Shown here piece after piece: positions 12,806-39,937 of a DNA stretch of 53,818 nucleotides. Under the pieces are notes generated by a model. It saw only the letters and a list, made by a program, of their open reading frames with translations, was not told where the DNA came from and did not search any database. The number at the start of each line of letters is the position of its first letter. Position 1 is the first letter of the stretch. The stretch is from an uncultured Anaerolineales bacterium (GTDB lineage Bacteria; Chloroflexota; Anaerolineae; UBA4142), in NCBI GenBank assembly GCA_903825565.1, contig CAIKBD010000488.1:1-53818 (forward strand). Reading direction: 5' to 3'. Both the position numbers and the translations under genes were made by a program.

Positions 12806-12820
12806 TTTCGATTGGAGGGG

Positions 12821-13777: not shown

Positions 13778-13792
13778 GTCAAGGGAGCGCAT

Positions 13793-13823
13793 TGTAGAGA
13801 CGTTGCAATGCAATGTCTCTACA
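13793..13823. repeat. GTAG-type REP-like palindrome
   Basis: TGTAGAGACGTTGC-AAT-GCAATGTCTCTACA. Confidence 0.6.
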
Positions 13824-13846
13824 TTTTGTTTTAGGGATCATTCAGC

Positions 13847-14704: not shown

Positions 14705-14711
14705 GATCAAC

Positions 14712-20604: not shown

Positions 20605-20621
20605 AAAACAGTGGAGATGGT

Positions 20622-21581: not shown

Positions 21582-21612
21582 ATCGGTATATTTAGAGTCT
21601 GGAGGATTTTTT

Positions 21613-23379: not shown

Positions 23380-23488
23380 ACGACGCATTGACCGTTCGTA
23401 GCCAGCACAAGGGAGGTGGTACGAGCAAATAAAAATTCTGGCTAGTCTAGTCATTCGAGTCAATTTCTCAATTCTCATGGAGGAGAAG

Positions 23489-24526
23489 ATGAAAAAGTTA
23501 CTTGTCGTTGCGATGCTTGCCATCGCGTTGCTTGTTGTCGCATGTGCGACGCCAACCGCCGAACCGACCAAAGCGCCGGCATCGTCCGCGGCAAGTCCGA
23601 CCAAAGCCGCGTCGCATCCCGAAGTCAAAGTGAACATCTACACGTCCTCGTTCGGTACGCTCAACTATACGTTCTCGTTCGCGCTCGGCGATATGATGAA
23701 CAAGAAACATCCCTGGTTGCGAATTGCCGTGCAGGAAACCACCCAGGCGGCGGACGCGATCAAGACGGTGGCGGCAGACCCCGCGCTGAGAAAAAACAGT
23801 ATGTTCCCACTCGCTTCGTCCATTCACTATGATGCCACGAATGGCACCGGCGCATTCGTCAACAATGCGATCAAGTACCAAGCCGTTGCGATGTACAACT
23901 CGAACGCAGTCGCGTTTGTCGCGCTCGATTCCAAAATTCAAACGGTCAAAGACCTGGATGGCAAACGGATCACGGTCGGTTCCGCCGGCGGCGCTGCGCC
24001 AACCTTCGAATCCATCATCGCCGCGTATGGCATCAAGCCAGCCAAGATTGACAAGATCAGTTGGGAACCCGGCAAAGATGCGTTGATTGACGGCAAGACC
24101 GATGCGTGCGCGCAGACCTTGGGTGATGTGGGTCTCAATCCATATCAACCCAATGCGACGATTTCGCAACTGCAAGCCACGAATGGTTTTCATCTCGTCG
24201 CGATGGACCCCGAACTGGTGAAAAAAGCCGCGACAACGGTTCTGCTCAGTCCCATTGACCTGCCTTCGGGGACGCTGGGACTCTCCAAGCCGACGACCGT
24301 GGCGTTGAACACCAACACGTTGGCAGTCCTGCCCGAATTCGATTCCGAAGCCGCGTATGAAATCGCCAAGTTCATCGTTGAGAACGCGGATGGATTCAAG
24401 GACTATGACAAGTCCCTGGGTTCGGTGAAAAAGAGTTCGGTGGCTTCGTTTGCGGTGCCGATTGTGACAGTCAATCCGGGCGCGGAAAAGTACTATAAAG
24501 AAGCCGGCATGAAGATCGGACAGTAA
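23489..24526 (+). CDS. TAXI-family TRAP transporter solute-binding lipoprotein
   Basis: SD GGAGGAG, LVVAC lipobox, S.I..VKDLDGKRITVG, C-terminal PGAEKYYKE typical of TAXI proteins. Confidence 0.85.
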   Translation: MKKLLVVAMLAIALLVVACATPTAEPTKAPASSAASPTKAASHPEVKVNIYTSSFGTLNYTFSFALGDMMNKKHPWLRIAVQETTQAADAIKTVAADPALRKNSMFPLASSIHYDATNGTGAFVNNAIKYQAVAMYNSNAVAFVALDSKIQTVKDLDGKRITVGSAGGAAPTFESIIAAYGIKPAKIDKISWEPGKDALIDGKTDACAQTLGDVGLNPYQPNATISQLQATNGFHLVAMDPELVKKAATTVLLSPIDLPSGTLGLSKPTTVALNTNTLAVLPEFDSEAAYEIAKFIVENADGFKDYDKSLGSVKKSSVASFAVPIVTVNPGAEKYYKEAGMKIGQ

Positions 24527-24764
24527 AGCGACTGGATAGTCCCTCTCCAATGAAATCGTTGCACAAAATGCAAGGATTTTGGGACGCGGATATTTTTTAT
24601 CCACGCTCGGCCGCGTCCAAGCAAATGAATTGGGTTTCGGCTTGTCCGAGTTAGGATAGAGCCAGACCGACGGTGACACGCCCGCTTGGTTTGCCCGAAC
24701 CAAGCGTTTGCCGCAAGCCAAGCGGGATCGCTCACGGTCAAGTTTCGCATTCGGGAGAAAAACA

Positions 24765-26702
24765 ATGGCATCACAGGGTTCCGATGAACTCATCGGCAAG
24801 TACATGGTGGACGGTCAGCAGTCGAATACCAAGCCCTTGGGCGTTTTGCAAATCGCCATCTATGTTTTTGCGATTGCAATGATTCTGTTTCAATTTTTTG
24901 GCGATAGCGTAATGTCCATGAGCGAATTGGCGTTCAAGGATATTCATTATGCTTTTGTGCTGACGATCTCGTTTCTCGTCCTGATGAAAAAACACCCCAA
25001 GCAAAATTGGCTGTGGGCGATTCTTCTCGTCGTCTCGCTGTTCTCGACCGGCTATGTGTACTTTTACGAGGAAGCGTTGATCCTGCGCGCGGGTCAGCCC
25101 ATCGGCTTGGATATTCCGGTCGGCATTGCGCTCCTCGTGGTCGCGCTCATTGCGACGTGGCGCACCTGGGGCATGGCAATCCCCCTGATGAGTCTCGCCT
25201 TTATCGGCTATACGTTTATCATCCAGTACTTGCCGCCGCCGTTTTACGGTCCCTCGCCGACGCTGGCGCGCATGGTCACGACACTCACGATTGGTCTCAC
25301 TGGGATGTGGGGCACAATGATGAGCACGTCGGCGAATACCATTTTCTATTTCATGGTGTTTGGTTCCGTGTTTGAAATGACGGGGACGGTGCGTTGGTTC
25401 GACGAGATCGGCAAAGTCATCGGGCGCTTTTCCAAAGCGGGCGCGGCGCAGACCTCGGTAGTGACGAGCGCGTTGTTCGGTCTCACCAGCGGCTCGGCGA
25501 TGGCGAATGTCGTGACTTCTGGCATCTTTACAATTCCGGCGATGAAAAAAGCCGGCTTTAAGCCCGAAGACGCCGCGGCGATTGAAGCCACGTCCTCGGT
25601 GGGCGGTCAGATCATGCCGCCGATCATGGGCACGACCGCGTTCATTATGGCGGCGGTGATTGCGACGCCGTATGCCGAGATCGCGTTGCGCGCCGCGATC
25701 CCGGCGTTGCTGTTCTTTCTCGCCTGCGGAGTTCAGGTGGAATTGATCGCGCGCAAAGAACGCACGACGGTCGCCGATGAACAGGTGAACGTGAAAGAGT
25801 TGATCTTGATGTCGCCCTTGTTTATCGTGCCGATGGTCCTCCTGACCTGGTTGCTGTTTGAAGGGCACAGTGTTGCTTACTCGACCGGTCCCGCCATCCT
25901 CAGCATGATCGTGATTAGCATGTTACGCAAAGAGACGCGCCCAACTTGGCGCGGCGCGCTCGAAGGTCTCTCCGATGGCGCGATCAAGGGCGCGGAGTTG
26001 GGAATCACTTGCGCGGCAATGGCGCCGATTGTCGTGCTCACGACCTATACCGGCTTGGGCATCAAGTTTCCCGGTATTGTGCAAATGTTCAGCGGCGGCA
26101 ACATGCTGATCGCGTTGATTCTGACTGCCATCGTCGCGCTTGTGGTGGGCTTGGGCGCGCCGACCTCGGTCACGTATTTGATCGTGGCGATCATCATCGC
26201 GCCCGGTCTGGTCAAGATGGGCGTGCCCTTGCTCGCGGCGCATATGTTTGCATTTTACTATGGCATCATCGGGGCGGTGTCGCCGCCCGTCGCGCCGGCG
26301 GTGCTCGTTGCCGCCCGCATGGGCGATGCGGACTATATGAAAGCCGGTTGGGCATCCATGAAATTTGCCGTCGTCGGTTTTATCGTGCCGTTTCTTTTCT
26401 GCTTCAACCCGGTTCTGCTCGGTTATTTCAAGGACCCTGTTTCGGATATTGTGGTTCTGGTGATGACGTGCGTCCTGGTTTTTATCCTGTCGGTCGCATT
26501 GGTCGGTTGGTATCTCACCCGGCTCAACGTAATCGAGACGCTCGTTGCCGGGTTGAGCAGTGCGCTCCTGGCATTCTACATCGGGACAAACAACCTTGTG
26601 CTTTTGGTTGCGGCGTTGGTTTCATTCGGACTCTTGACCCTCTGGCAAGTCAAAAAGAAAAGGGCGGAAAAAAATTTGCAAGCCGGGGCAAGCCCTGCTT
26701 GA
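24765..26702 (+). CDS. TRAP transporter fused permease (4TM/12TM, DctQM-like)
   Basis: SGSAMANVVTSG..TIP.MKK.G, AIEATSSVGGQIMPPIMG, AHMFAFYYG, SPPVA. SD GGGAG before ATG 24765. Confidence 0.92.
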   Translation: MASQGSDELIGKYMVDGQQSNTKPLGVLQIAIYVFAIAMILFQFFGDSVMSMSELAFKDIHYAFVLTISFLVLMKKHPKQNWLWAILLVVSLFSTGYVYFYEEALILRAGQPIGLDIPVGIALLVVALIATWRTWGMAIPLMSLAFIGYTFIIQYLPPPFYGPSPTLARMVTTLTIGLTGMWGTMMSTSANTIFYFMVFGSVFEMTGTVRWFDEIGKVIGRFSKAGAAQTSVVTSALFGLTSGSAMANVVTSGIFTIPAMKKAGFKPEDAAAIEATSSVGGQIMPPIMGTTAFIMAAVIATPYAEIALRAAIPALLFFLACGVQVELIARKERTTVADEQVNVKELILMSPLFIVPMVLLTWLLFEGHSVAYSTGPAILSMIVISMLRKETRPTWRGALEGLSDGAIKGAELGITCAAMAPIVVLTTYTGLGIKFPGIVQMFSGGNMLIALILTAIVALVVGLGAPTSVTYLIVAIIIAPGLVKMGVPLLAAHMFAFYYGIIGAVSPPVAPAVLVAARMGDADYMKAGWASMKFAVVGFIVPFLFCFNPVLLGYFKDPVSDIVVLVMTCVLVFILSVALVGWYLTRLNVIETLVAGLSSALLAFYIGTNNLVLLVAALVSFGLLTLWQVKKKRAEKNLQAGASPA

Positions 26703-26715
26703 CCTCCTCTTTATA

Positions 26716-26742
26716 GGGGTGGCGTGTCACTGCCGCCACCCC
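26716..26742. repeat. GC-rich hairpin (REP-like or terminator/attenuator)
   Basis: GGGGTGGCG-tgtcactgc-CGCCACCCC just after the permease stop. Confidence 0.5.
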
Positions 26743-26787
26743 AACCCTTGCGCCAATGATTGAATTTTTTCAGCCGAGATAAGACGT

Positions 26788-28521
26788 ATGAACCCCGCAA
26801 CCCCGGTGAAACTTCAAGTATTCAACCCCACCAGTCGAGTGAACATTTCCGCGCCGAATGCGCCGCGTCTGGACACCTTGAATGGCAAGACCCTCTGTGA
26901 ATTGTGGGTCTCTGGCAATTGGGCCGGCGAGCGAACGTTTCCGGTTCTGCGCGCAATGTTGCGCGTGCGTTTTCCCGGGATCAACATTGTGCCATACACC
27001 GAGTTTCCGTACACCGAAAAAGGATTGTCCACGCGCGCCACGTATGAACCGTACTTTGAAAAAATGGGCGAGCTGTTGCGCGCCCAGGGATGCGATGCCG
27101 TTTTGATTGGCAATGGCGGTTGCGGGTGCATCATCCCGGTCAGCACCGTCGCGGCGCTCGTCGAAAAAGCCGGGTTTCCGACCGTCACGATTGTCTCCGA
27201 TGAATACGCGGAGGTGATCAAGGTTACGGCGCAAGGACAAGGGCTTGCCGCATTGCCAAGCGCGTCGTTCCCCAGCCAGGTGATGTGGCGTCAGGTTGAG
27301 GACGTGCGCCCCGCGTGCGAAAACGCGCTCGATGCGATCATCGCCGGCTTGACGACCTGGCGACCCGATGAATCAAATGCAACCGAGCCGAGCGAGTTTG
27401 TGTTTGAAGGTGCGGATTATCAGGATGCGGTTGACCAAATGGAAAGCGCATTTCTTGCGCGCTGGTGGAGCGATGGCTTGCCGCTGATCCCGCCAACCCG
27501 GGAGCGCGTCGCGTGGCTGTTGACCGGCACCGATTTGCCGCGCGAGCAAATCGTCACCCAGAAAATTTCGCCGCGCTATGGCGCGATCACGGTCGAGACT
27601 GTTGCGATCAACGCGGCGATGGCGGGCGCGCGCCCGGAATATCTGCCGGTGATTTTGGCGGCGATTGACGCGCTCGGCGCGACGAAAGCGGGCTTGGAAC
27701 TGAGTTATGTTTTTCAAGAGACCTTGTCGCCGGTCGCGCCCTGGTTTATCGTGAATGGGCCCATCGTGCAAGAACTGAACATCAATTCATCGTTCGGCGT
27801 CCTGGGTCCCGGTTGGAAAGCCAATGCGACGATTGGGCGCGCCATCGGGTTAGTGCTGAACAATGGCGGCGGTGGCAATTCGGGACCAGCGGGCACACGC
27901 CGGGCGCAATCTACGGCGGCGCGCTACACCTGTTGCTTTGCGGAGAACGCCGCAGAAAATCCCTGGAGTCCGTTCCAGGTCGAAAATGGTTTTGGCGCGG
28001 ATGTCAGCACGGTGACGATTATGGCGGGCAAAGGCACACACCTGGTTCACGTTGTAGATGGCACCGAAGAAATTTTGCGAGCGGCGGTGCGTGCGTTAAA
28101 AGGATTCACGTATCACGACATCGGCGTACCCTGGGATCAGTGGCTCATCCTGTCGCCCGACCATGCCCAGCGGCTTGCGCGCGGCGGCTGGACGAAAGCG
28201 AGTATTCGCGCGTACATTCACGAACGCGCGCGGATACCTTTGGTGGAAGCAAAAGCGGACGGTATCTTTTTGCGCTTTAGCGAAAGTTGGCTGAAACAAG
28301 TGGCGACGACCCAGGATCACAACCTGCCAATCCCGATCACGGAAAAACCGGAGGATTTGAATATCGTGGTGGCGGGTGGCACCGGCAACGGCAATTCGAC
28401 GCTGGTTGCCGGAATGCGGAGAAAAGTCATCGCAGAGGTAGACCAGTACAAACCGCGAAACTGGGTGCAACTCCTGGAACGAGCCAGGCAAGATTTAACG
28501 TCAAGAGTGGATATATGCTGA
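26788..28521 (+). CDS. UGSC-family protein, cysteine homolog (CxC motif)
   Basis: Uninterrupted 577-aa ORF. DAVLIGNGGCGC...EKAGFP aligns with the U-G-x-C sites of the three downstream paralogs; shares WSDGLP.IPPT and A.MAGARPEY. Confidence 0.85.
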   Translation: MNPATPVKLQVFNPTSRVNISAPNAPRLDTLNGKTLCELWVSGNWAGERTFPVLRAMLRVRFPGINIVPYTEFPYTEKGLSTRATYEPYFEKMGELLRAQGCDAVLIGNGGCGCIIPVSTVAALVEKAGFPTVTIVSDEYAEVIKVTAQGQGLAALPSASFPSQVMWRQVEDVRPACENALDAIIAGLTTWRPDESNATEPSEFVFEGADYQDAVDQMESAFLARWWSDGLPLIPPTRERVAWLLTGTDLPREQIVTQKISPRYGAITVETVAINAAMAGARPEYLPVILAAIDALGATKAGLELSYVFQETLSPVAPWFIVNGPIVQELNINSSFGVLGPGWKANATIGRAIGLVLNNGGGGNSGPAGTRRAQSTAARYTCCFAENAAENPWSPFQVENGFGADVSTVTIMAGKGTHLVHVVDGTEEILRAAVRALKGFTYHDIGVPWDQWLILSPDHAQRLARGGWTKASIRAYIHERARIPLVEAKADGIFLRFSESWLKQVATTQDHNLPIPITEKPEDLNIVVAGGTGNGNSTLVAGMRRKVIAEVDQYKPRNWVQLLERARQDLTSRVDIC

Positions 28522-29624
28522 AACAATCCTATATTTATTTTGCGATTGCCGGCGAAGATAAAATCCTGGGTGGTACGCTCGATTCTGAAACTGGGGCGAT
28601 TGAGATTCGCCATGAAATTGCGGTGCCCTGGGGACCCGAGGCGTTAGCCATTGATCCCGGCAAGCGATTCCTTTTTGTAGGATGCCATCCGCGCAATGCG
28701 TCCAAGCATGGTTCTTGCGAGAGCAAGATGTACAGCTATTGGATTGATTGGCAGACCGGCGGCTTGACGCCCATCAACAGTGTTGCGCTCCAAGACGCGC
28801 CGACTTTTGTGGCGGTGGATCAGACATCGCGCTTTTTGCTTTCGGCGTACTATCGCGCTGGCAAAGCGGCGGTGCATTGCATCGGCGCGGATGGCGCGAT
28901 TGGCGAAGCGACGCAATGGTTCGAATCCGGCGGCGGCGCGCATTGTATCCAGGTTGATACATCCAATCGTTTCGCTTTTCTTCCGCACATCGCCACCAGC
29001 AAAGTCAATATCAATTATTGGCCCCCCAATGGAAATTCGAATCACATTTTACCCGGCGCGTCGAATACGATTCTGCAATTCAAATTCGATGACGCGACTG
29101 GGACGCTGATTCCCAATGCGCCATTCAAATTGCCGGGCGAACGCGGCGGCGGACCGCGCCATTATTGTTTTCATCCTAGGTTGAATGTGGTGTACTTTGC
29201 CAACGAACAGGGATGCGCCGTGACCGCGTACGCATTGAACCCAACCGAAGGCACGCTGACGCCGTTTCAACATATCTCGACGTTGCCACCGGAAGGCTAC
29301 GACAACTATGCCAGTTGTTCCAGTTTGCGTGTGACACATTCCGGCAAATTCTTGTATGTGCTGAATCGCGGTCTGGATAGTGTGGCGTGTTTCAGTGTTG
29401 ACCCGACGACGGGTCGGTTGAAATCGAATGGACTCGTGCCGACCGAAGCGCAACCGCACGCGCTCGAACTCGACCTGGATGACCAGTTTCTTTTTGTCGC
29501 CGGACATACTTCAGGGTGCTTGACCACCTATCGCGTACAAGAAGATGGCAAGTTGCAACCAATCGCCTCGCGTGCGATTGGCAAACAACCCAAGTGGATT
29601 TTGGTGACGCGGCAAGAAACCTAA
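28515..29624 (+). CDS. Lactonase family beta-propeller protein (6-phosphogluconolactonase-like)
   Basis: AHCI, GGGPRHYCFHP, YFANE, FLYVLNRG, P.WI repeats; ATG 28515 overlaps the upstream stop. Confidence 0.88.
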   Translation: MLKQSYIYFAIAGEDKILGGTLDSETGAIEIRHEIAVPWGPEALAIDPGKRFLFVGCHPRNASKHGSCESKMYSYWIDWQTGGLTPINSVALQDAPTFVAVDQTSRFLLSAYYRAGKAAVHCIGADGAIGEATQWFESGGGAHCIQVDTSNRFAFLPHIATSKVNINYWPPNGNSNHILPGASNTILQFKFDDATGTLIPNAPFKLPGERGGGPRHYCFHPRLNVVYFANEQGCAVTAYALNPTEGTLTPFQHISTLPPEGYDNYASCSSLRVTHSGKFLYVLNRGLDSVACFSVDPTTGRLKSNGLVPTEAQPHALELDLDDQFLFVAGHTSGCLTTYRVQEDGKLQPIASRAIGKQPKWILVTRQET

Positions 29625-29628
29625 GCCC

Positions 29629-30450
29629 ATGATGATTGTGGATACCCATGCTCATGCGTCGCCTTTTTGGTTCGAACCCATCGAGGTGTTGCTGTTTCAG
29701 ATGAACCGCAACGGCGTAGCCAAGACGATGCTCGTCGCGATCAATGGGCAGACGGATGAAAAATATAATCGGTATCTGATCGAGTGCGCGCAAAAATTCC
29801 CCGGTCGTTTTGCGCCCATCATCCTGGTAGACCCAGAACGCGCGGATGCGCCGACGATGCTGAAGCACTGGGCGAGCCAAGGCGCCGAAGGGGTACGATT
29901 AAAGGTGACGGCGCGTTCGCCGGGCAGTGACCCGCTGAGTATTTGGAGAGCGTGCGCCGACCTGGGTCTCGTCGTCTCATGCCAAGTGCGGCGTCTCGAA
30001 GAGTTTGCGAGCGATGAATTGCGCATCCTGGTCGCGGCATTGCCGAATTTAATTTTTATCATCGAACATCTGGGCAAGCCCAACCTGGACGAAGCCGCGC
30101 CGTACCCCAACTATAAACAGGCGTTGAACCTAGCCCGGTTTCCGAATGTGTACATCAAGGTGGGCGGACTGGGAGAAATTTGCCGGCGACCGTATCCGTT
30201 TCGTGAACCGTTTTATCGGGGAGAGGTGCCGCCGTTTATCAAAATGGCTTACGATGCTTTCGGTGCGGCGCGCATGATGTGGGGAAGCAATTATCCACCC
30301 AGCAGTCAGGTTGAGGGCTATCGCAACACGTTGGGTTATCTCGATGAATATCTCGATTCGTTTTGTAGCGCGCAAGATCAAGCCTGGATGTTTGGCAAGA
30401 CGGCGCTGACCCTCAGTTCAAATCAACGCGGAGTGATGAATCATGAGTGA
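29629..30450 (+). CDS. Amidohydrolase_2-family protein (sugar/pyrone lactonase-like)
   Basis: VDTHAH, GVRL, IEHLGKP, PNVYIKVGG, AFGAARMMWGSNYP. Confidence 0.87.
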   Translation: MMIVDTHAHASPFWFEPIEVLLFQMNRNGVAKTMLVAINGQTDEKYNRYLIECAQKFPGRFAPIILVDPERADAPTMLKHWASQGAEGVRLKVTARSPGSDPLSIWRACADLGLVVSCQVRRLEEFASDELRILVAALPNLIFIIEHLGKPNLDEAAPYPNYKQALNLARFPNVYIKVGGLGEICRRPYPFREPFYRGEVPPFIKMAYDAFGAARMMWGSNYPPSSQVEGYRNTLGYLDEYLDSFCSAQDQAWMFGKTALTLSSNQRGVMNHE

Positions 30451-32182
30451 ACCAACCTATCAAGTCGTTTGGCCCCTGGGCAAATCCACCTATCAAATTG
30501 TGGCGATGCAATCGCGGATCAAGGATTTGGCGAGCATCACGGTTGGCGAATTATCGCACGGCGGTTTTCGCGATCAAGAGATTCGCCCCCTCGTCGAAGA
30601 AACATTGGCGAAACAATTTCCGGGGATTAAATTTATTGATCACACCGTTTTCGGCAACATTCACGGTCGCAACGAAGCCGAGGTGGTTGCCGCGTTGCCG
30701 GAAAATTTGCGTCAACACAAAGTGGATGCGGTCATCACCGGCATCGGTTCCTGAGGAAGTTGCACACCCGCCGTGGTGCGGGCAAGCGTGGTCGTCGAGA
30801 AAGCCGGCATTCCTACGGCATCTATTGTGGCGACTGGGTTTCTCGGTCAAGCCAAGGCGACCGCCAAATCACTCGGCATGGCGAACCTGGGATTGGCGGA
30901 ATATCCCGGCATCATCATGAATCACAGCCAAGAAGAGCTTCGCAAGAATGTCGAGACGGTGCTCGTGCCGAATATCATCAAGGTGCTCACAAAACCGACG
31001 GAGAACGCGGTCAAGGTCAACGAGCTAAGAGCGACCGACGTTATTTTCGAGGGGACGCTCGATGAGGTCAACGAATTCTTTTTGCAAAAACAATGGTCGG
31101 ATGGTTTGCCGATCATTCCGCCGACCGTCGAGCGTGTGCAAGCGTTCCTTAAATTTACGGATCATCAACCGGACGAGGTGCTGGGCGTCCTCGCGCCGGA
31201 AAATCGCCAAGCCACCATTTGGAACGTGGCGGTGAACGGCGTGATGGCGGGCTGTCGCCCCGAGTACATGCCGGTGCTCATCGCCGTTGTCGAGGCGATT
31301 GCCGAACCGGATTTTCATCTGCGCGATGCCGGCGCAACGCCGGGCTGGGAGCCGCTCATCATTCTCAACGGACCCATCGCCAAGGAATTGGATTTCAACT
31401 ACGAGTCGGGAATTTTGCGCGCGGGACGCCAGGCGAACACGAGCATTGGGCGATTCATTCGCTTGTACATGCGAAACGTCGCCGGCTTGCGCATCGCGCC
31501 CGGTAGCATGGACAAGGGGAGTATCGGTCTCGGCTTGAATGTGGTCGTGGCAGAGAATGAAGATGCGGTGAGCGAACTGGGTTGGGAATCGTTCAGTAGC
31601 CAACGCGGATTTGATCGCAGTGATAATGTCGTGACGGTGCAAAGCGCACTCAGCACGACGATCCCGATTTACAGCGCCGGCGATACCGCGCTCGATCACA
31701 TGGATACGCTCGTCGAAGTGTTTGGCGGCACGTGCGCGTTCTGGTCGCATACGGCAGTTCGCAAGGGCAAATATTTTCCCCTGCTCATCATCAGCCCGGG
31801 TGTCGCCAAAGTCATCGCGCGTGATGGGTGGACGAAAAGAGAGATTCAGCAACATCTGTTTGAGCACACCAAGGTTTCGGTGCGCGCGTTGCAAAAACAC
31901 GCCTGGCAAATCGGTTTTTCGGAATACGATCTTTACGCGCTCGTCGCCAAAGGTGTGGTGTCGCCCGCGTACGCCGAATCGGATGATCCGGATCGCTTGG
32001 TGCCGGCGTTCATCAAATCGGAATGGATCGGCATCGTTATCGGCGGCGACCCCGGTCGCAATCAGAGCAAGGGCTTTGTGCAGAATCACGATCAAGCGCC
32101 GCCCATCAGCAAAAAAATTATTTTGCCGGCGAATTGGCAGAACCTGGTTGGCAAAGTGAAAAAATCGCATGAAGCCCATTGA
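30443..32182 (+). CDS. UGSC-family selenoprotein (579 aa; Sec104 encoded by in-frame TGA 30752-30754)
   Basis: ORFs 30443-30754 and 30773-32182 are the same frame, separated only by TGA. Readthrough gives DAVITGIGS-U-GSCTPAVVRASVVVEKAGIP, collinear with the Cys paralog. Confidence 0.88.
30755..30785 (+). promoter_or_regulatory. Candidate bacterial SECIS hairpin
   Basis: CCCGC(CGTGGT)GCGGG stem-loop; the loop starts 18 nt after UGA; possible lower pairing TTG/CAA. Folded by eye only. Confidence 0.6.
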
Positions 32183-33386
32183 GGTCGCGCCGTCCGCGAA
32201 CGTAAACGCGGACGCGGTTGACGAGCGATTGCTGTCGGCGAATTTCGTCTTTACCGTCCTGACTAATTTTTTCTATGCGCTCGGTGGGCAAATGACGAAT
32301 GCTATCGTGCCAATGTACGTGTTGAGCATTGGCGGCACGAATGCCGAAGCCGGCTTGATCGGCGGCATCGCTTCGATCACGGCGCTGGTTGTGCGCTCGC
32401 TGATCGGCTGGGTGACCGATGTGTGGCGGCGACGCCCGGTGATCTTGTTGGGCACGATGCTCTATGCGGTCGCCAATTTTATTTATTCCATCAGCGGCGC
32501 AATCGGGATGATCATTTTTGGGCGCGTCATCCAAGGATTGGGCATCAGTTGTTATAGCACGGCGTCCACGTCGTACGTCGCCGACATCGCGCCACCCAAA
32601 CGCCGCGCCGAAGCCATCGGTCTCTTTGCCGCCGCCAATAGTCTGGGGCTCATCCTGGGTCCCGCGATTGGTTTTTATTTGATCGCACTCCTGGGTTATC
32701 ATGGACTGTTTTACATTGTGACGGGAATTTCGGCTGTCGCCGGCATCGTCTCGCTGTTTGCGAAAGAAAAAATAAAGCCGCGCGAGACCAAACGTCCGGC
32801 TTGGTCTTGGCGTTCGGGCATCGTGGCGGTGGACGCGCTACCGATTGCTTGGACAGCGCTGTGTCTGGGCATGGCGTACGGCTCGTTGACCACGTTTATC
32901 GCGATTTTTGCGACCGCGCGCGGCATCGCGAACCCCGGTTTTTATTTCACGGTTCAAGCGATCATGCTTTTGTTGTCCCGCACTTTTTCGGGTCGCTTTG
33001 CGGATAAATATGGTCGCGCGTTCGTGATTGCGCCCGGCTTGATGGCGATGGCATTGGCGTTGGGTATGTTGCCGCTGATGTATGACTTGAGCGGTTTCAT
33101 GATTTCTGCCGCGCTCATGGGCTTGGGCTTTGGCACTGCGCAACCGGCAACGATGGCGCTGTTGGTGGACCAGGTGCGTGCGGATCAGCGCGGACTCGCG
33201 GTTGCCACGTACTCGATGGGGTACGACGGCGGTATGTTCCTGGGCGCGTCCTTGTTCGGCGTGGTCACCCAGGTCTGGGGCTTTAATGTCATGTGGACAG
33301 CGGTAGCGGTTTGCGTATTGCTGGGTCTGTTGGGCATTTTGAGAACCTTGCGCATGAATGTTTCGATTTCAAGTGAACAAAAATAA
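32169..33386 (+). CDS. MFS transporter
   Basis: About 12 hydrophobic segments, G..TDVWRRR and GRFADKYGR motif A, ILGPAIG. Confidence 0.92.
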   Translation: MKPIEVAPSANVNADAVDERLLSANFVFTVLTNFFYALGGQMTNAIVPMYVLSIGGTNAEAGLIGGIASITALVVRSLIGWVTDVWRRRPVILLGTMLYAVANFIYSISGAIGMIIFGRVIQGLGISCYSTASTSYVADIAPPKRRAEAIGLFAAANSLGLILGPAIGFYLIALLGYHGLFYIVTGISAVAGIVSLFAKEKIKPRETKRPAWSWRSGIVAVDALPIAWTALCLGMAYGSLTTFIAIFATARGIANPGFYFTVQAIMLLLSRTFSGRFADKYGRAFVIAPGLMAMALALGMLPLMYDLSGFMISAALMGLGFGTAQPATMALLVDQVRADQRGLAVATYSMGYDGGMFLGASLFGVVTQVWGFNVMWTAVAVCVLLGLLGILRTLRMNVSISSEQK

Positions 33387-33586
33387 ATTGACCCGGATTG
33401 TGTTGAATTCAATCCGTGAACACGATTGAAGCGACAAATTGCACGCGCAACATAGCGTAACGTGTAGCAACGCGAAGCAAATTTTGTGCGGCATTCGGCA
33501 TCCAGCGTCCGTTATCGCAAGTGGCAAAATAATTCTGCTCACCTACTTGGTGATTGGAGATACAAGTCAGGAGCTGTGAACATATC

Positions 33587-35299
33587 ATGATCTCATTCCA
33601 AGTGCTCAATCCCTGCGGCGCGGTTGGCTCGACCAAAGGGGCTTATGCGCCGCGTCTGCCCGATCTCGCCGGCAAAACGATTGGGATGCTGTCCAATCAA
33701 TTGGGCGAAGCCGACCGAATTTTTCCGGCGATGCGCGAGTTATTGCGAAAACGATTTCCAACTGCCAACATTATTCCGCACACCGAATTTCCACAGGGCG
33801 GCGACCGGATTGATTCGGCAGAGATTGTGCAAATCGTCCAAAGCAAAAAATGTGATGCGGTCATCGTCGGCAACGCGCAGTGAGGGTCGTGCACCACCAA
33901 AGCCGGTCGGGCTGCGGCAAGACTAGAAAAAGTCGGTATCCCTTCGTTCATCATCACGCGCAAGGGTTTTGCTAAAATCGTGGACAGTGCATTTGCCGGC
34001 ATGGGTTTCCCTGCCGATGCGCCGTCCGTCTTGGAATTCCCGCTCGAAATGTTTGTGCCGGGGAGCGATTTGTCGCCGCTCGAAAAAAACCTGGATCAGA
34101 TTATTTTTGGACTGACGCAATGGAAATCCAAAATCGCCGAACGTACAAGTTACGCGCCGCCGCCCATCACGATTGAGGGCAAGGATTATCCCGCTGCGCT
34201 CGACAACCTGAATTTATTTTTCTTGCGTAACTTGTGGAGCGATGGACTGCCCATTGTGCCGGCGACGCGTGAGCGGGTGGATTGGCTTTTGACCGGCGCT
34301 AATTTGCCGCGCGAAAAAATTCTCGGCACGATGCTTCCGCGCGGCGGCATCGTCACGCTTGAACAGATCGCGGTGGCGCTGGCGATGGCAGGCGGGCGTC
34401 CCGAATATATGCCGGTGCTCATCGCTACCGTCGCGGCATTCCTCGACCCCGCCATCAAACACGAACATTTGCAAACCACGACCGGCAATAATTTTCCGGT
34501 CGTCATCGTCAACGGCGCGATTGCCAAACAAATTCGGCTCAATGCCGGCACAGGGTGTTGCGGACCCGACCCGAATCATCCGGCGGGCGCGAGCATCGGA
34601 CGTGCGTTGCGCTTTTTGCAAATGAACGTTGGCGGCGCAATCCCAGGTCAGGGGACGATGGCAGAGTATGGCGCGAACCGGTTTACGAACATGGTCATCG
34701 CCGAAAATGAAGACGCGCTACCGGCAGGGTGGCAATCGCTCAGCGAGGAGCGCGGCTTTAGCCGAGCAAGTAACACGGTCACGCTGCATTTCGTTGCGTC
34801 CATCATTGACATGATTCCGTCCACGACGACGACGGAGCAGGCGGCGATCTATACCTTGAATCGGTGGGCGGCGTACATCGGTGGTCCGTTCAACATGTAT
34901 TTCGGTTTCGAGTCGCGCTGGGAGCATGGCTCGCCGGGCGTGTTGTTGATGGGTGCGTTGACCGCGCAAGGATTTGCCAACACCGGTTTTTCCAAAGACC
35001 AGATTCGAGAATGCTTGTGGGAAAAATCGAAACTAGCGCCGGAGAAAGTCAAAGAGTACGGCTACGAAAAACATGTGGCGGAGTTGCGCCTCGATCCCAC
35101 CATGCCCTTGCCGGTATCCAAGTCGCCCAAGTCGTTGCTCATTGCGATTGCCGGCGGCGCGCCATCGGGTCATGCGTACTTTATGCCGAACCAGGGCTAC
35201 ACATCGGTTACCCAAGAAATAAAATTGCCGTCCAGTGCGACCTGGGACGATCTTTTGAAACAAGCCGCGCAAGACCTGGGTCCGTTGCCGGCGAGTTAA
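33587..35299 (+). CDS. UGSC-family selenoprotein (570 aa; Sec99 encoded by in-frame TGA 33881-33883)
   Basis: Same frame across the TGA: DAVIVGNAQ-U-GSCTTKAGRAAARLEKVGIP continues without a stop into ORF 33980-35299. ATG 33587 follows AGGAG. Confidence 0.87.
33884..33923 (+). promoter_or_regulatory. Candidate bacterial SECIS hairpin
   Basis: AGCC(GGTCG)GGCT apical stem-loop, loop starting 22 nt after UGA; lower stem GTC.TGC/GCA.GAC. Folded by eye only. Confidence 0.55.
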
Positions 35300-35316
35300 A
35301 ATCGGAGGTTTGAAGA

Positions 35317-36999
35317 ATGCCAGCACATAGTTCCTATCAAGTTCTGTCGCCGATCACCGAATCGCATACGCAAAAAACACGCTTGGCTCCGTCCATCCCC
35401 GACCTCGCCGGGAAAACCATCGGCGCGATGCGCCACACCTTTCGCGCCGACGAAACATTTCCGATGATCGAGCAGTTGTTGCGCGAAAAATATTCCAACC
35501 TCAAGTTCATCTCGAATACGGACATGCCGGACATGCGCCCGACGAACGCGGCGGAAGAAGCCGAGCTAACGCGCGTGCTCAAGGATAAAGGATGCGACGT
35601 GCTCCTTGCCGGCAACGGCGCTTGAGGAACGTGCGCGCCCGCGGCTTCACGGGCAGTCATCACAGCGGAGAAAGCCGGCATTCCTGGCGTGGTCATCGCC
35701 GTCTCCGATTTTCTCACGAGTTGCCGGGCAACCGGCAAAGCGGCGGGCTTGCCCAACCTTCGCGTGGCGGTTTATCCCGGCGCGATTGCTGTGCATCCAC
35801 TTGAGGATGTGCAAAAAAATATCCAGGAAATTGTCTTTCCGCAAATCATCAAATTGTTGACCGAACCAGTCGCGCAAGGCGCGGTGTCAAGCAAGGTTGC
35901 CGCGCAAGAACCGGCGATTGTTTTTCAAGGTAGCTTTGAGCAAGTGAACGAGTACTATACTCAAAAGCAATGGTCGGACGGTTTGCCCATCGTTCCGCCC
36001 ACCGCCGACAAGGTGCAAACGTTCCTTAAATTTACAGAGCATTCGCCCAACGCGGTGTTGGGTGTTTTGCATCCGGCGTTGCGCCCAGCGACCGTTCACT
36101 CGATTGCGGTCAATGGCGTGATGGCGGGCTGTCGTCCCGAGTACATGCCGATCTTGGTGGCGATTGTGCAAGCGATTGCCGACCCGCGTTTTCATCTCGA
36201 AGATGCGGGCAGTTCGGCGGGCTGGGCGCCGCTAATTATTCTCAACGGTCCGGTCATCGCGCGACTGGGTTTCAATGCCGGCACCGGCGTGATGCGCGCG
36301 GGCAATCAGGCGAACACGAGCGTCGGTCGTTTCCTGCGCTTGTATCTACGCAACGTCGCCGGGTTTATTCCCGGCGTGAGCGACATGGCAACGTTCGGGC
36401 GTCCCAATTTTCCGGTGCTCGCCGAGAATGAATCCGCGAGTCCCTGGGAGCCGTTGAGTGTGACGCGCGGATTCGCGCCCGGCGATAGTGTGGTCACGGT
36501 CACTTCGGTGGGGTGCATGAGTTATCAGTTGACGGTGGTCGCGCAAACGGGACACGATATTCTCTACAATCTCACCGCCAAAGTGAAACAGACTTTGCTC
36601 GCGGGCGATGGCTCGGTGATTACCAAAGGTCCCGAACAAGCGCCGCAGTTGGTGTTGAGTCCGGTGGTGGCGCGCTCGTTGGCAGAGGCGGGGTACAGCA
36701 AGCGCGATATTCAACAGCACATCTTTGAGCACGCCAAAGTGCCCGCGTGCGAGTTCGATGCGTGGTTGGCGTTTCAAGGTGTGGTCAACGCGCGCGAGTG
36801 CGTGAAAAAAGGTTTGCTCCCGGCGCAGTTCGCCGAGTCGGATGATCCGCAAAGAATGTTGCCGCTGTATCACGCGCCACACGAATTGCAAATCATCGTC
36901 GCCGGGACGCCAGAGCGCAATCGGTTTTTCGTGACCCAGCAAGTTGGACGGCAAGGACTCGCCACTTCAAAAAAAATCAGCATGGGTTTGCTGGGGTGA
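35317..36999 (+). CDS. UGSC-family selenoprotein, UGTC variant (560 aa; Sec103 encoded by in-frame TGA 35623-35625)
   Basis: SD GGAGG. Readthrough gives DVLLAGNGA-U-GTCAPAASRAVITAEKAGIP, in frame with ORF 35689-36999. Confidence 0.88.
35626..35655 (+). promoter_or_regulatory. Candidate bacterial SECIS hairpin
   Basis: GCCCG(CGGCTTCA)CGGGC stem-loop, loop starting 17 nt after UGA. Folded by eye only. Confidence 0.55.
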
Positions 37000-37108
37000 G
37001 CCATGCACTCGTGTTGGAAAACAAGTTAGACGCGGACAAGCGCGGATGAACGCGGATAAAAACTAGTGGGTGCTCGGGCGTGTGTTATTTCTAAGCAGCG
37101 AGACAATT

Positions 37109-37130
37109 CGTGAGACAAATTTGTCTCACG
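37109..37130. repeat. Perfect 22-bp palindrome upstream of the dehydrogenase
   Basis: CGTGAGACAAATTTGTCTCACG. Confidence 0.6.
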
Positions 37131-37151
37131 TCTTCAAAAGAGGTAAGCATA

Positions 37152-38174
37152 ATGAAACAAGCAGTGATGCCTGCTCCAGGCAAAATCGAATTTAGAAATG
37201 TAGGACAGCCAACCTGCCAGGATGACGAGGTGCTCGTTCAAATCAAACGCATCGGCGTATGTGGTTCGGATATTCACGTCTATCACGGACAGCATCCGTA
37301 CACAACGTATCCGGTGGTGCAAGGGCACGAAGTGTCCGGCACGCTTGCTCAGATCGGGAACGCGGTCAAGAGCTTTACACTGGGCGAGCAAGTTGTGTTC
37401 ATGCCCCAGATCACCTGCGGCGAATGTTATCCGTGTCGCCAAGGCATGTATCACATCTGCGACAACCTCAAGGTCATGGGCTTTCAAACTGGCGGAGCGG
37501 CGCAAGATTATTTTCCGGTCAAGGCGAACATGGTTCTAAAAATGCCGGACGCGATCTCGCTCGATCATGCCGCGATGATCGAACCGATCTCGGTCGCCGT
37601 TCACGCCTTGTCGCGTGTGGGCAGTGTGCAGGGGCGCAAGGTGTTGGTGTTGGGCGCGGGAACGATTGGCAACCTGGTCGCGCAAACGGCGCGTGCGCTG
37701 GGCGCGGCGCGCGTGATGATTACCGATGTGAGCGAATACAAGTTGGACAAGGCGCGTCGTTGTGGACTCGACTGCGCGATCAATTCGCAACAAGAAAATC
37801 TCACGGACGCCATCATCCAACACTTGGGTCCCGACAAAGCCGATGTGATCCTGGAATGTGTCGGCGTCGAGGAGACGATTACGCAAGCGATTGCGAACGC
37901 GCGCAAGGGCACGCCGATTGTCGTCGTGGGAGTGTTTGGCAAAAAGCCGCCGGTGGATTTGGCGATGGTGCAAAATAATGAATTGAGTTTGATTGGCACG
38001 CTCATGTATCAACGCGCCGATTATGAATGTGCGATCGACCTGGTTGCCCGGCACGCGATTCAACTCGACGAATTAATCACGCATCGCTTTCCATTCGAGG
38101 CATACCTGGAGGCGTATCAGGTGATTGAAGCATCGCAAGGCAAATACCTCAAGGTCATGATCGAACTGGACTGA
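37152..38174 (+). CDS. Zinc-dependent (MDR) alcohol/polyol dehydrogenase
   Basis: GVCGSD, GHE, CGECYPC..C structural Zn site, GAGTIG; SD GAGG before ATG 37152. Confidence 0.93.
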   Translation: MKQAVMPAPGKIEFRNVGQPTCQDDEVLVQIKRIGVCGSDIHVYHGQHPYTTYPVVQGHEVSGTLAQIGNAVKSFTLGEQVVFMPQITCGECYPCRQGMYHICDNLKVMGFQTGGAAQDYFPVKANMVLKMPDAISLDHAAMIEPISVAVHALSRVGSVQGRKVLVLGAGTIGNLVAQTARALGAARVMITDVSEYKLDKARRCGLDCAINSQQENLTDAIIQHLGPDKADVILECVGVEETITQAIANARKGTPIVVVGVFGKKPPVDLAMVQNNELSLIGTLMYQRADYECAIDLVARHAIQLDELITHRFPFEAYLEAYQVIEASQGKYLKVMIELD

Positions 38175-38265
38175 GTGGATGCGTGGAACACGCTGGGAGA
38201 AAATCGGATTGAACCCGCGCAAATTATTTTCACCGATCACGGTTTTTGCGCGGGGGAGGCATGTC

Positions 38266-39474
38266 TCACATTTTGCGAACGCTAGGCGTGCCGGTATCCC
38301 ACCCAGCGCGTGCCATGCCACAGCCGAATGCGCCAACGGCACAGAGTAGCGCCGTGACGGTCATCGTCGCGGCGAGTCCCCCAACCCCGGCGACCACACC
38401 CAGCACCAAAGGGCACAAGGTGCTTCCAAAGCGAAGCGCGGTGAAACGCAAGCCCAAGGCGAAGCCGCGTTGCTCTGCTGGAACCGCGCTGGCAGTCATC
38501 GCCATGGTCAGCGGATACAAGACGCCGACTGAAATCCCGATCACGCCCGCCGAAAATCCCCACGCCATCATGCCTTGTGTCCAGGGAATTAGCGCAAACG
38601 CCGGAAAACTGATCAGAAACGCGATGAGCATTAGAGTCCGACGTCCGAACCATTCGACCAGCGTTCCTATTCGACTACGGATCACAATACTCGCGGCGGC
38701 AAGCACCGAAACCAGAACGCCGATCTGTGTGGCAGAGTAGCCGGCATGAGAGAAATAAAGCGGGAGAAATGAGACCCGCGCACTGAGCGCGAGAGAACCG
38801 ATAAAGATTGTCCAGATTGCCACGCCCAGCGCCCGGTTGCTCCATAAGGATTTTTGCAATCCCTTTTCCAAGCGAGCCGTGTCCGGCGTTTTAAGCGTAC
38901 GCCGAAATCCTAGCAAGCCGATTACCGACATCCCCGCTACCCATGCGGCGAGACTAAAAACTAGGGGGAGACTGGACCAATCGGCAATCATCCCCGCGAT
39001 GGCGGGCCCCAGAGTTTGCCCGATGGCGGATGTTGTACTGAGCCAGCCGAATGCCTCCAATTGTTTTCTGCGCGACTCGATCCCGGCGAGAAGCGATTGA
39101 TAAGCGATTGAGGTGGAGGCGTACCCGAGACCGCTGAACATCAAAAAAACGACAAGTAGCCAGATGGTCGTTGATGTTCCAAACCCGAATAGCCCCAGCG
39201 CACACAGCGCTGTTCCGAGCATAGCCAAGCGCCGAGTTCCGATGCGATCCACAAGTTTGCCTAAAGGGAGCGCAAAGAACATGGGCACCATTCCCGTGAT
39301 CGCCAAGAGCACGCCAATGACGCTAGGCGATGCCCCTAAACTCGCAAGTTGGAGTACGCTTAGCGGCTGGGTTCCCTGAATGGCAAGCTCTACGCAAAAG
39401 CCGGAAACGTAAATACCAACCAGATCGCGAAAACCGACACCGCCCGACGCGGTCTGATCGGACTGAGTAGACAT
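38266..39474 (-). CDS. MFS transporter
   Basis: GKLVDRIGTRR and GTLVEWFGRR motifs, LGPAIAG; ATG 39474 follows GAGGGAG. Confidence 0.88.
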   Translation of the reverse strand: MSTQSDQTASGGVGFRDLVGIYVSGFCVELAIQGTQPLSVLQLASLGASPSVIGVLLAITGMVPMFFALPLGKLVDRIGTRRLAMLGTALCALGLFGFGTSTTIWLLVVFLMFSGLGYASTSIAYQSLLAGIESRRKQLEAFGWLSTTSAIGQTLGPAIAGMIADWSSLPLVFSLAAWVAGMSVIGLLGFRRTLKTPDTARLEKGLQKSLWSNRALGVAIWTIFIGSLALSARVSFLPLYFSHAGYSATQIGVLVSVLAAASIVIRSRIGTLVEWFGRRTLMLIAFLISFPAFALIPWTQGMMAWGFSAGVIGISVGVLYPLTMAMTASAVPAEQRGFALGLRFTALRFGSTLCPLVLGVVAGVGGLAATMTVTALLCAVGAFGCGMARAGWDTGTPSVRKM

Positions 39475-39855
39475 GATTCGTGGCTCCCTCAACCATTTGC
39501 CATTGCCTTTTGCTACGTTAGGGCGTGGCACAGTTCATTCCTTGATCAAATGTTGCAACAACGCTCGGCGAGACGCTCGAAAAACCAATGCGGTTCTACA
39601 GGCGCTTTGGAATTTGGCAAGATTTTCTTTTCGAGCAACTGTCGAGTCAGTATACCATGTCCGTTTCGCGCGACAAAATGCGGAAGGAACGACGGCAAAT
39701 GTTTCAATGCGCCCGGGGTGTTCGCCGCGCAAGATTCCTGTCGTGTGTCCGAAACGCTTCGGCATTGCGCCACACAACCGGCGGAGCTGGCGCGCCGCGT
39801 TCTTCACAACCCGCAAGTGACTAGGCACACGCCGTGCGATGCTCAATACTTGCTA

Positions 39856-39884
39856 TTGACAATTGTTTTTTCTTCGATTATACT
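39856..39884 (+). promoter_or_regulatory. sigma70 promoter of the ROK operon, overlapping a candidate operator (TACTTT...AAAGTA, 39881-39905)
   Basis: TTGACA-17 nt-TATACT. Confidence 0.75.
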
Positions 39885-39937
39885 TTCACCACGTAAGTAA
39901 AAGTAACTTGGTGTAACTAGACGCAAAGGCGCGGTGC

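Follow-up and report, generated by a model that had tools for sequence, protein, structure and literature searches.

We analyzed a run of ten genes on the forward strand of contig CAIKBD010000488.1 from an uncultured Anaerolineales bacterium, with particular attention to four paralogous genes (here called A to D) that encode long members of the UGSC selenoprotein family; the whole stretch of 53,818 nucleotides (nt) is referred to as the window. On the evidence of profile comparison, the selenocysteine (Sec)-bearing module of these proteins is homologous to the Sec-bearing C-terminal module of GrdB and PrdB, a local relationship that does not amount to membership of the Grd or Prd families. On balance, we favored a reading in which the long UGSC proteins would be two-domain selenol/thiol oxidoreductases that act on imported organic acids and are recycled by a thioredoxin-type system, and not parts of a Grd/Prd complex.

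The initial annotation of the window had stated that the Sec site of these genes resembles those of GrdB and PrdB, with the same distance between the Sec and a following Glu, and this resemblance was borne out by genes fetched from Clostridia-class genomes. The reference set consisted of 14 full-length GrdB-type and 3 PrdB-type genes, each with an in-frame TGA; one PrdB-type gene was excluded from the alignment for an extra stop, leaving 16 GrdB/PrdB sequences. The fetched motifs read DAV[IV]LTST-U-GTC-TRCGATMVKEIE-R-AGIP and DAVVLTAG-U-GTC-HRSAVI.QRAIE-E-.GIP, and the pattern DAV[IV]LT..-U-GTC-x11-E-..-G-[IL]-P equals that of the window paralogs, including the U-to-E spacing. When 26 UGSC N-domains were compared with the 16 sequences using hhalign, a probability of 96.7% and an E value of 4.3e-10 were obtained over 103 columns, with UGSC 77-186 aligned on GrdB 320-424 of 431 and Sec placed on Sec. 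In an NCBIfam scan of 69 family members, weak matches to one and the same model recurred only for PrdB (13 members), GrdB (9), GrdF (9), GrdH (8), and TIGR01918 (6). Paralog D itself gave a weak match to the PrdB model TIGR04483 (E 1.7e-4), against which family members scored at most 21 bits compared with a cut-off of 300. None of the 69 members matched the Pfam GRDB model (PF07355) at E<=1. This model covers 347 positions and stops just before the Sec of GrdB (loci L093-L107), leaving the region shared with UGSC outside; thus, the kinship is invisible in Pfam scans.

The shared part comprises approximately 100 residues, D-A-V-x-x...U-G-[ST]-C-x11-E-x-x-G-I-P, and is common to UGSC and GrdB, GrdH, GrdF, and PrdB, whereas the remainder of GrdB is unrelated to the UGSC C-domain and UGSC proteins score below the cut-offs of the family models (PF07355, TIGR01917/01918, and TIGR04483). 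In hhalign, the C-domain gave 0.6% with the N-terminal part of GrdB and 0.2% with GrdE/PrdA. The initial annotation had seen no grdA or prdA in the window, and this absence held for grdE and grdB as well: PF07355, PF04723 (GrdA), and PF09338 (GrdE/PrdA) were found neither in the window nor in the 93%-complete genome to which it belongs, in which GrdC/D were likewise not found, and identical searches with the three models succeeded in the control genomes G117 and G072. A search for GRDB in five Bacillota genomes with UGSC loci likewise found none. The source organism of the window comes from oxic lake water and, in contrast to the organisms with Grd/Prd systems, is presumably not a Stickland fermenter. 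As a separate observation, the UGSC N-domain showed a weak alignment with GrdE 259-342 (L111-L121; hhalign 68%, E 4.7e-5), which suggests one alpha/beta module common to GrdE, GrdB, and UGSC and on which we did not rely.

Each of the four paralogs is a protein of 560-579 aa with an N-domain of ~185 aa and a C-domain of ~390 aa. The Sec-region motif read in the initial annotation, D-[AV]-[VL]-[IL]-x5-U-G-[ST]-C-x11-E-K-x-G-I-P, was matched exactly in B (U104), C (U99), and D (U103), which carry UGSC, UGSC, and UGTC, respectively. Paralog A had been counted there as a fourth UGSC gene; its active site reads GNGG-C-G-C-IIP...EKAGFP, with Cys at the place of U, a C-x-C motif, and one residue fewer, and, since it has no TGA, the cluster consists of three Sec forms and one Cys form. 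In many homologs (L018, L019, L021, L022, L024, and others), a Cys stands right before the Sec (C-U-G-S-C); the residue at this position in the window paralogs (S-U, Q-U, and A-U) is not Cys. The motifs of the C-domain (WSDGLP, MAGxRPEY, and others) were found in all four paralogs. The near-invariant residues in the alignment of 69 sequences were W218, D220, G221, P223, P226-T228, N265, M268-A-G-C271, P273, R337, N345, and E371, among which just one is a Cys, and an Fe-S ligand triad was not conserved. This Cys271 is kept in 66 of the 69 sequences; the exceptions include window paralogs A (Ala) and C (Gly), the latter being the most divergent of the four at the conserved C-domain sites. Judging from these residues, B and D appear to be the canonical enzymes, and for A and C, in which the C-domain Cys is missing, a role as partner subunits or as isoenzymes of altered chemistry is more likely.

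The initial annotation had presented the genes as a new selenium-dependent system; however, the family itself is not new. Passages of PMC2398784, PMC1976440, PMC9312934, and PMC13188914 describe the UGSC-containing protein as a selenoprotein family of unknown function known since 2005-2008, and a 'UGSC/Unknown_1' fusion was reported in 2008, according to passages of PMC2398784. Unknown_1 in that report is probably the same as the C-domain of the window paralogs. In this literature, UGSC is prominent in ocean and especially in non-marine aquatic samples and has been counted since 2005-2008 with the most abundant selenoprotein families of aquatic metagenomes; passages of PMC2398784 give it such a rank for oxic surface waters, and the function is still called largely uncharacterized in part of a 2026 review (PMC13188914). 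A kinship of UGSC with GrdB is not mentioned in the passages of these four sources. Both Pfam and NCBIfam have models of the family. The N-domains of all four paralogs exceeded PF24696 (UGSC), with 54-98 bits against a gathering score of 25. The NCBIfam equivalog NF041046, a short form of 147 positions, gave 34.3, 66.0, 52.9, and 58.6 bits for A-D and its cut-off of 125 was not reached, the window proteins being the long fused form. Compared with the known family, the window paralogs have the same U/C-G-[ST]-C motif and the same PF24696 N-domain, but they represent the long fused form with four copies in one putative operon, and paralog A has C-G-C instead of UGSC.

Close full-length Cys homologs are labelled 'UGSC family (seleno)protein' or 'UGSC-like domain-containing protein' in the source databases. 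A word-indexed search returned more than 3461 proteins, and at least 4795 clusters at 50% identity were found at E<=0.001; many database entries start just past the TGA, that is, the Sec genes were called short. The loci that we fetched span Pseudomonadota, Chloroflexota, Actinomycetota, Acidobacteriota, Bacillota, Bacteroidota, Spirochaetota, Verrucomicrobiota, and others. Seven copies are present in the genome of the window, and two of 30 relatives hold one each. A further long UGSC copy (G000:C435:2477-2926; L092) contains two TGA codons within its N-domain match, and its neighbours have no Pfam family.

By comparative evidence, the three in-frame TGAs in paralogs B, C, and D are genuine Sec codons, at which selenium would be incorporated into the proteins. 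The Pfam UGSC match spans the TGA in all three genes, and Cys occupies the Sec column in full-length homologs from Actinacidiphila, Novosphingobium, and Pelagibacterium. Among 31 strict-motif copies in other genomes, the codon was TGA in 29 and Cys in 2. The genome of the window encodes a complete Sec machinery, with selA, selB, and selD together with two predicted tRNA-Sec genes. Contigs from other lake-water studies, ~99% alike, span 30400-36100 without insertions or deletions and with 46 substitutions, none of which fell on the three TGA codons among the matches listed. The selD gene, directly 5' of selB (G000:C39:4393-7413), has an in-frame TGA and is itself a selenoprotein gene.

Support for a Sec insertion sequence (SECIS)-like hairpin downstream of the UGA came from comparison across the family. 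In 50 Sec genes, 83% of the cells of the hairpin at +15..+32 after the UGA were paired in register, compared with 36-51% when the 3' side was shifted by 1-3 nt; in 44 of the 50 genes, no fewer than 5 of the 6 pairs formed, with compensatory CG<->UA and CG<->GC swaps. The mean fold z-score was -1.53 in the 50 Sec genes and +0.53 in 4 Cys genes. RNAalifold found no consensus structure in the gapless 66-nt alignment, because two stem registers coexist, and the hairpin support was therefore counted as explicit base pairs in place of the RNAalifold consensus.

An AlphaFold2 model of paralog B, built from the 69-sequence alignment, was a confident two-domain model (predicted local distance difference test (pLDDT) 96.5, predicted template modeling score (pTM) 0.95). 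Residues 26-189 were predicted to form a Rossmann/flavodoxin-like alpha/beta domain (best VIA-align Z 8.6-9.8) whose structural matches were short-chain dehydrogenases, receiver domains, PurE, and similar proteins. The model places Sec104 after strand 96-102 and ahead of helix 107-120, and the U/C-x-x-C pair sits at the start of the helix. A thioredoxin-like fold was proposed for UGSC in 2008, as stated in passages of PMC2398784; in contrast, the predicted N-domain of paralog B is Rossmann/flavodoxin-like, and no thioredoxin-fold protein stood among the best 50 VIA-align rows for residues 26-189, a listing that does not exclude families outside it. The whole-model fold-search lists contained generic alpha/beta N-domain matches and no GrdB/PrdB chain, the coverage of such structures by the library not being established.

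The C-domain, which had been left without an assignable function in the initial annotation, found no convincing relative in our searches either. Folded alone, it reached pLDDT 96.6. Pfam searches with the four C-domains at E<=10 gave nothing beyond one chance Smr row, the sequence of paralog B had no PDB match at E<=1, and a C-domain profile returned only chance-level PDB rows (best E 0.07, Hsp104). In VIA-align, 2 of 48161 chains reached Z 5, the best being 7xky_A, a class I fumarate hydratase (Z 5.2, root-mean-square deviation 3.9, 93 residues), and PrpD, IRG1, and L-serine dehydratase gave Z 3.3-3.7; according to the tool's own note, unrelated models typically find their best match at Z 7-8. 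The best Foldseek matches were also class I fumarate hydratases (E 1.2e-3, template modeling score (TM) 0.24-0.30). The model thus suggests a C-domain that lacks a known fold or family, and an apparent new fold. The ESM Atlas contained clusters of proteins of 348-371 aa that resemble the C-domain and are unnamed or automatically named 'thioredoxin family'; that stand-alone C-domain proteins exist was taken as a lead only.

We also predicted the complex of the C-domains of paralogs B and A. The score was 0.75 in all three runs, and the best of three controls gave 0.00. Among solved complexes, 58 of 80 attain this mark, and among mismatched pairs 2 of 110 do so, a calibration that is rough here since our own alignments were used. 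Contact agreement between the runs was at least 78%, and the pLDDT of the partner was at least 77. The confident contacts (B numbering) comprised the WSDGLP loop 219-225, Ala269-Gly270 beside Cys271, and the Arg337 helix, together with the matching residues of A. The prediction is that of a C-domain dimer in which the most conserved motifs of the family come together at the interface, homo- and heterodimer not being distinguished.

The genomic neighbourhoods of UGSC genes were compared in 80 loci from named genomes that had been selected by likeness to paralog B. Recurrent neighbours were found by clustering the flanking open reading frames (ORFs) and naming them with Pfam, and a neighbour was called immediate when it lay within 250 nt on the same strand. 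The initial annotation had suggested neighbourhood statistics as a check: the neighbours that it named in the window recurred in only one or two of the 80 loci, and two other families were adjacent repeatedly. A TctC carboxylate receptor was the immediate neighbour in 15 loci and lay within 5 kb in 24; this adjacency is weaker than its count, because TctC is very numerous in Burkholderiales, the source of many of the loci. A thioredoxin reductase (TrxR)-like flavoprotein (Pyr_redox_2) was the immediate neighbour in 9 loci and lay within 5 kb in 10. The TrxR-like proteins have a single CxxC at approximately residue 133-179 and show, over their length, 28-37% identity to the trxB genes located 5' of grdE in the grd operons that we fetched. 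Genes of the trxB type are common neighbours in GrdB/PrdB loci as well as in UGSC loci. Less frequent neighbours were PrpD (9 loci), short-chain dehydrogenases/reductases (SDR), CoA-transferase III, enoyl-CoA hydratase (ECH), thiamine pyrophosphate (TPP) enzymes, and TRAP. Two de novo clusters, c5 and c6, were rejected as neighbour families since they were antisense ORFs over TctC genes, and antisense ORFs over UGSC genes were dropped as well.

The adjacent TrxR-like genes lend support to a redox role. In thioredoxin-system-dependent reductases, a low-molecular-mass TrxR acts with a CxxC/UxxC acceptor; UGSC likewise has a U/CxxC at the N-terminus of a helix after a beta-strand, and in 9-10 of the 80 loci the adjacent gene encodes a TrxR-like flavoprotein with one CxxC. 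UGSC differs from these reductases in that the acceptor domain is predicted not to be a thioredoxin fold and no thioredoxin gene was seen in the module. At least two copies of the family were present in 22 of the 80 loci. The order long UGSC gene, C-domain-only paralog, TrxR-like gene occurred in L018, L019, L022, L028, and L044, and L036 had another order; the second gene in these six loci was closest to paralog A in four, and D tied with A in L019 (34-37% identity). The hetero-oligomer proposed in the initial annotation thus gained some support from these recurring unlike paralog pairs and from the B/A prediction, in which a homo-oligomer is not separable from it.

The genome of the window has further copies in other contexts. 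The C20 copy lies in an operon with an Opp-type ABC system, a LUD-domain protein, a MaoC-like hydratase, a biotin-dependent decarboxylase set, and a CoA-transferase; a TrxR-like gene stands ~1.3 kb 3' of this UGSC copy with one gene between, and its product is 59% identical to the counterpart beside a Lachnospiraceae UGSC gene. The C357 copy is placed between genes for an HdrD-like Fe-S/CCG protein, a flavin adenine dinucleotide (FAD) oxidoreductase, and a 2-oxoacid dehydrogenase E1. Among distant members in Bacillota and Treponema, the genes next after UGSC encode AhpC-TSA/redoxin and DsbD_TM (CcdA-like) proteins or a Fer4 protein (L058:7378-8666, L060:11849-12589, L071:11960-13461), and in L066, L068, and L069 an extracytoplasmic function (ECF) sigma factor gene adjoins a distant UGSC gene, with an anti-sigma zinc finger in L069. 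These genes hint at an envelope thiol-redox context in the distant branch.

In the window, the ten genes of the run (table 1) follow each other with short gaps or overlaps, from the TAXI-TRAP genes to the Zn-dehydrogenase gene as the last, and the downstream gene at 38269-39531 lies on the opposite strand. Gene order, strand, the upstream TAXI-TRAP importer, and the overlaps of paralog A with the lactonase gene at 28515 (7 nt), of the Amidohydro_2 gene with paralog B at 30443 (8 nt), and of paralog B with the MFS gene at 32169 (14 nt) all agreed with the initial annotation. From this layout alone, 23477-38174 would be a single operon; a promoter/terminator consensus scan of 21000-40000 gave chance-level counts, 13 versus 10.4 and 31 versus 26.9 in shuffles, from which no boundaries could be drawn. 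For paralog C, an alternative TTG start at 33554 is likewise open. In the NCBIfam scan, the 6-phosphogluconolactonase models stayed below their cut-offs for the lactonase, the Amidohydro_2 hydrolase showed a weak likeness to L-fucono-1,5-lactonase and 4-sulfomuconolactone hydrolase (NF052480 and NF042924, far below cut-offs), and the top matches of the Zn-dehydrogenase (threonine 3-dehydrogenase and others) were under their cut-offs. Two lactone-type hydrolases, an MFS transporter, and a Zn-dehydrogenase in one run point to a hydroxy-acid or lactone catabolic route.

Table 1. Genes of the UGSC run, Sec codons, and hairpins in the window
Feature	Position	Strand	Details
TAXI-family TRAP solute-binding protein	23477..24526	+	349 aa; TIGR02122 128.8 bits vs cut-off 84.35; Pfam NMT1_3
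Fused TRAP permease	24708..26702	+	664 aa; TIGR02123 464.9 bits vs cut-off 320.65; Pfam DctM
Paralog A, long UGSC family, Cys form	26788..28521	+	577 aa; PF24696 54.4 bits; in-frame TGA absent
7-bladed beta-propeller lactonase	28515..29624	+	369 aa; PF10282 E 3.9e-54
Amidohydro_2 hydrolase	29629..30450	+	273 aa; PF04909 E 8.5e-33
Paralog B, Sec104 in UGSC, canonical C-domain with Cys271	30443..32182	+	579 aa; TGA=U translation; PF24696 98.2 bits
Sec codon TGA, paralog B	30752..30754	+	in-frame translation
SECIS-like hairpin, paralog B	30766..30783	+	5 bp, loop CGUGGU, 15-32 nt after U of UGA
Major facilitator superfamily (MFS) transporter	32169..33386	+	405 aa; PF07690 E 1.3e-52
Paralog C, Sec99 in UGSC	33587..35299	+	570 aa from ATG 33587; PF24696 87.2 bits
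Sec codon TGA, paralog C	33881..33883	+	in-frame translation
Imperfect hairpin, paralog C	33886..33918	+	minimum free energy fold; apical loop ~19-24 nt after UGA; weaker than B, D
Paralog D, Sec103 in UGTC, canonical C-domain with Cys	35317..36999	+	560 aa; PF24696 84.8 bits
Sec codon TGA, paralog D	35623..35625	+	in-frame translation
SECIS-like hairpin, paralog D	35637..35654	+	GCCCG/CGGGC stem
Zn-dependent medium-chain dehydrogenase	37110..38174	+	354 aa; ADH_N + ADH_zinc_N

The same strand carries, upstream of these ten genes, an extended series of catabolic genes that includes an Opp-type ABC system. Several of its other members were observed in passing. Two paralog-like proteins of ~590 aa without a Pfam family are encoded at 11033-12802 and 21613-23376, on the same strand, the second directly 5' of the TAXI gene; they showed a weak match to the nucleophile region of alpha/beta hydrolases and to a polyhydroxyalkanoate (PHA)-depolymerase model (E 1.3e-6 and 3.7e-4, far below cut-off). 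Three metallo-beta-lactamase-fold genes stand in tandem at 12812-15557 and are followed by genes for an FGGY kinase (xylulokinase model above cut-off), an aldo-keto reductase, and a phosphotriesterase-type (phospho-furanose lactonase-like) protein, and then by cupin-type glucose-6-phosphate isomerase (GPI) and 2-hydroxyacid dehydrogenase genes, which together form a large sugar/lactone-type island on the strand of the paralogs. The gene at 20538-21581 has a weak shikimate dehydrogenase likeness only (E 1.6e-6, far below cut-off) and no Pfam family at E<=1e-4.

For the two-domain oxidoreductase that we favor, we propose the following cycle. A small organic acid would be imported by the adjoining uptake system, which is TAXI-TRAP here and TctC, TRAP, or Opp-type elsewhere, and would be bound by the C-domain dimer at its interface. 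The selenol/thiol pair would supply two electrons, by a direct nucleophilic attack of the GrdB kind or via the conserved C-domain Cys (Cys271), and would end as a selenenyl-sulfide; the oxidised U-x-x-C might then be re-reduced by a thioredoxin-reductase-type flavoprotein or by thioredoxin. The cycle itself, the class of substrate, and the oligomeric state are inferred. Several observations weigh against this proposal. Passages of PMC1976440 and PMC13188914 call the function of UGSC unknown. The homology with GrdB covers only ~100 residues and the subunits that define Grd/Prd systems are absent. The window contains no TrxR-like or thioredoxin gene, as judged by a Pfam scan of its genes, and a TrxR-like gene is present in only 10 of the 80 loci. 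Neighbours of the window type are rare elsewhere (TAXI 1, TRAP permease 1, lactonase 2, Amidohydro_2 1, MFS 1, and ADH 1 of the 80 loci) and, as they are not conserved, the lactone/hydroxy-acid pathway would be specific to this locus and is a guess. In addition, the 80 loci had been selected by likeness to paralog B, and the three hairpins of the window are individually not better than shuffles (z +0.19, -0.43, and -0.59).

A narrower version of this proposal, and a special case of it, is a GrdB/PrdB-style reductase along the lines of the initial annotation, in which the Sec attacks the carbon alpha to the carboxylate for reductive C-N, C-S, C-O, or C-halogen cleavage and the C-domain replaces GrdE/PrdA. 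The Sec-module homology, in which Sec falls on Sec and the U-x-x-C and E/GIP spacing is equal, is consistent with this chemistry, as are the TrxB-like neighbour genes, which recall grd operons, and the view, found in passages of PMC10838667, that the GrdB family has diversified to other alpha-substituted acetates such as monofluoroacetate. However, the shared region is short and of a common alpha/beta fold, a site for a carbonyl cofactor is not evident, the C-domain is unlike GrdE/PrdA and the N-terminal part of GrdB, and GrdA, GrdE/PrdA, and GrdB were missing from a genome searched with working positive controls; we hold this version to be possible but rather unlikely.

We consider two further explanations less likely than the two-domain oxidoreductase. 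A role in thiol-redox defence or repair, such as the reduction of peroxides, sulfoxides, disulfides, or metalloids with an incidental operon context, would fit the abundance of UGSC in oxic surface waters (passages of PMC2398784), the DsbD_TM/CcdA, AhpC-TSA/redoxin, and ECF sigma genes beside distant members, and the existence of a TrxR-like partner. Nevertheless, overlaps of 7-14 nt join the window paralogs to genes of catabolism and transport, neighbours elsewhere are often solute receptors, PrpD, CoA-transferase, and ECH, and the four copies here and seven in the genome, compared with one each in two of 30 relatives, look like substrate diversification, all of which makes a defence role improbable. 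The least probable explanation, in our judgment, is a non-redox enzyme (an isomerase, racemase, hydro-lyase, or decarboxylase) in which Sec or Cys would serve as an acid-base or covalent catalyst. It would accord with the PrpD neighbours in 9 loci and with the best C-domain matches, namely class I fumarate hydratases in both Foldseek and VIA-align, followed by PrpD, IRG1, and L-serine dehydratase, but these structural scores are all under the usual best of an unrelated model, the C-domain has one near-invariant Cys and no conserved Fe-S ligand triad, and both the U-x-x-C pair and the adjacent TrxR-like genes speak for redox cycling with two electrons.

With its kinship to GrdB/PrdB, its link to TrxR, its apparently novel second domain, and the four-paralog operon, the 'unknown' UGSC family becomes directly testable: the TrxR-like reductase is the likely electron donor, and carboxylates imported via TAXI-TRAP or TctC are candidate substrates. 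More tentatively, and as a possibility to which we give limited credence, the long UGSC proteins might constitute an unrecognised, widespread branch of the GrdB/PrdB lineage, in which a Sec module joined to a substrate domain of new fold, with the active site across the dimer, would carry out TrxR-driven reduction or cleavage of imported acids without a GrdA or pyruvoyl subunit in aerobic freshwater, soil, and gut bacteria, and the four-paralog operon would encode substrate-specific or heteromeric reductases for one route. If the proposals made here were confirmed, selenium chemistry of the GrdB type would no longer be confined to anaerobic Stickland fermenters but would reach common aerobic bacteria, and a function could be assigned to a new protein fold.

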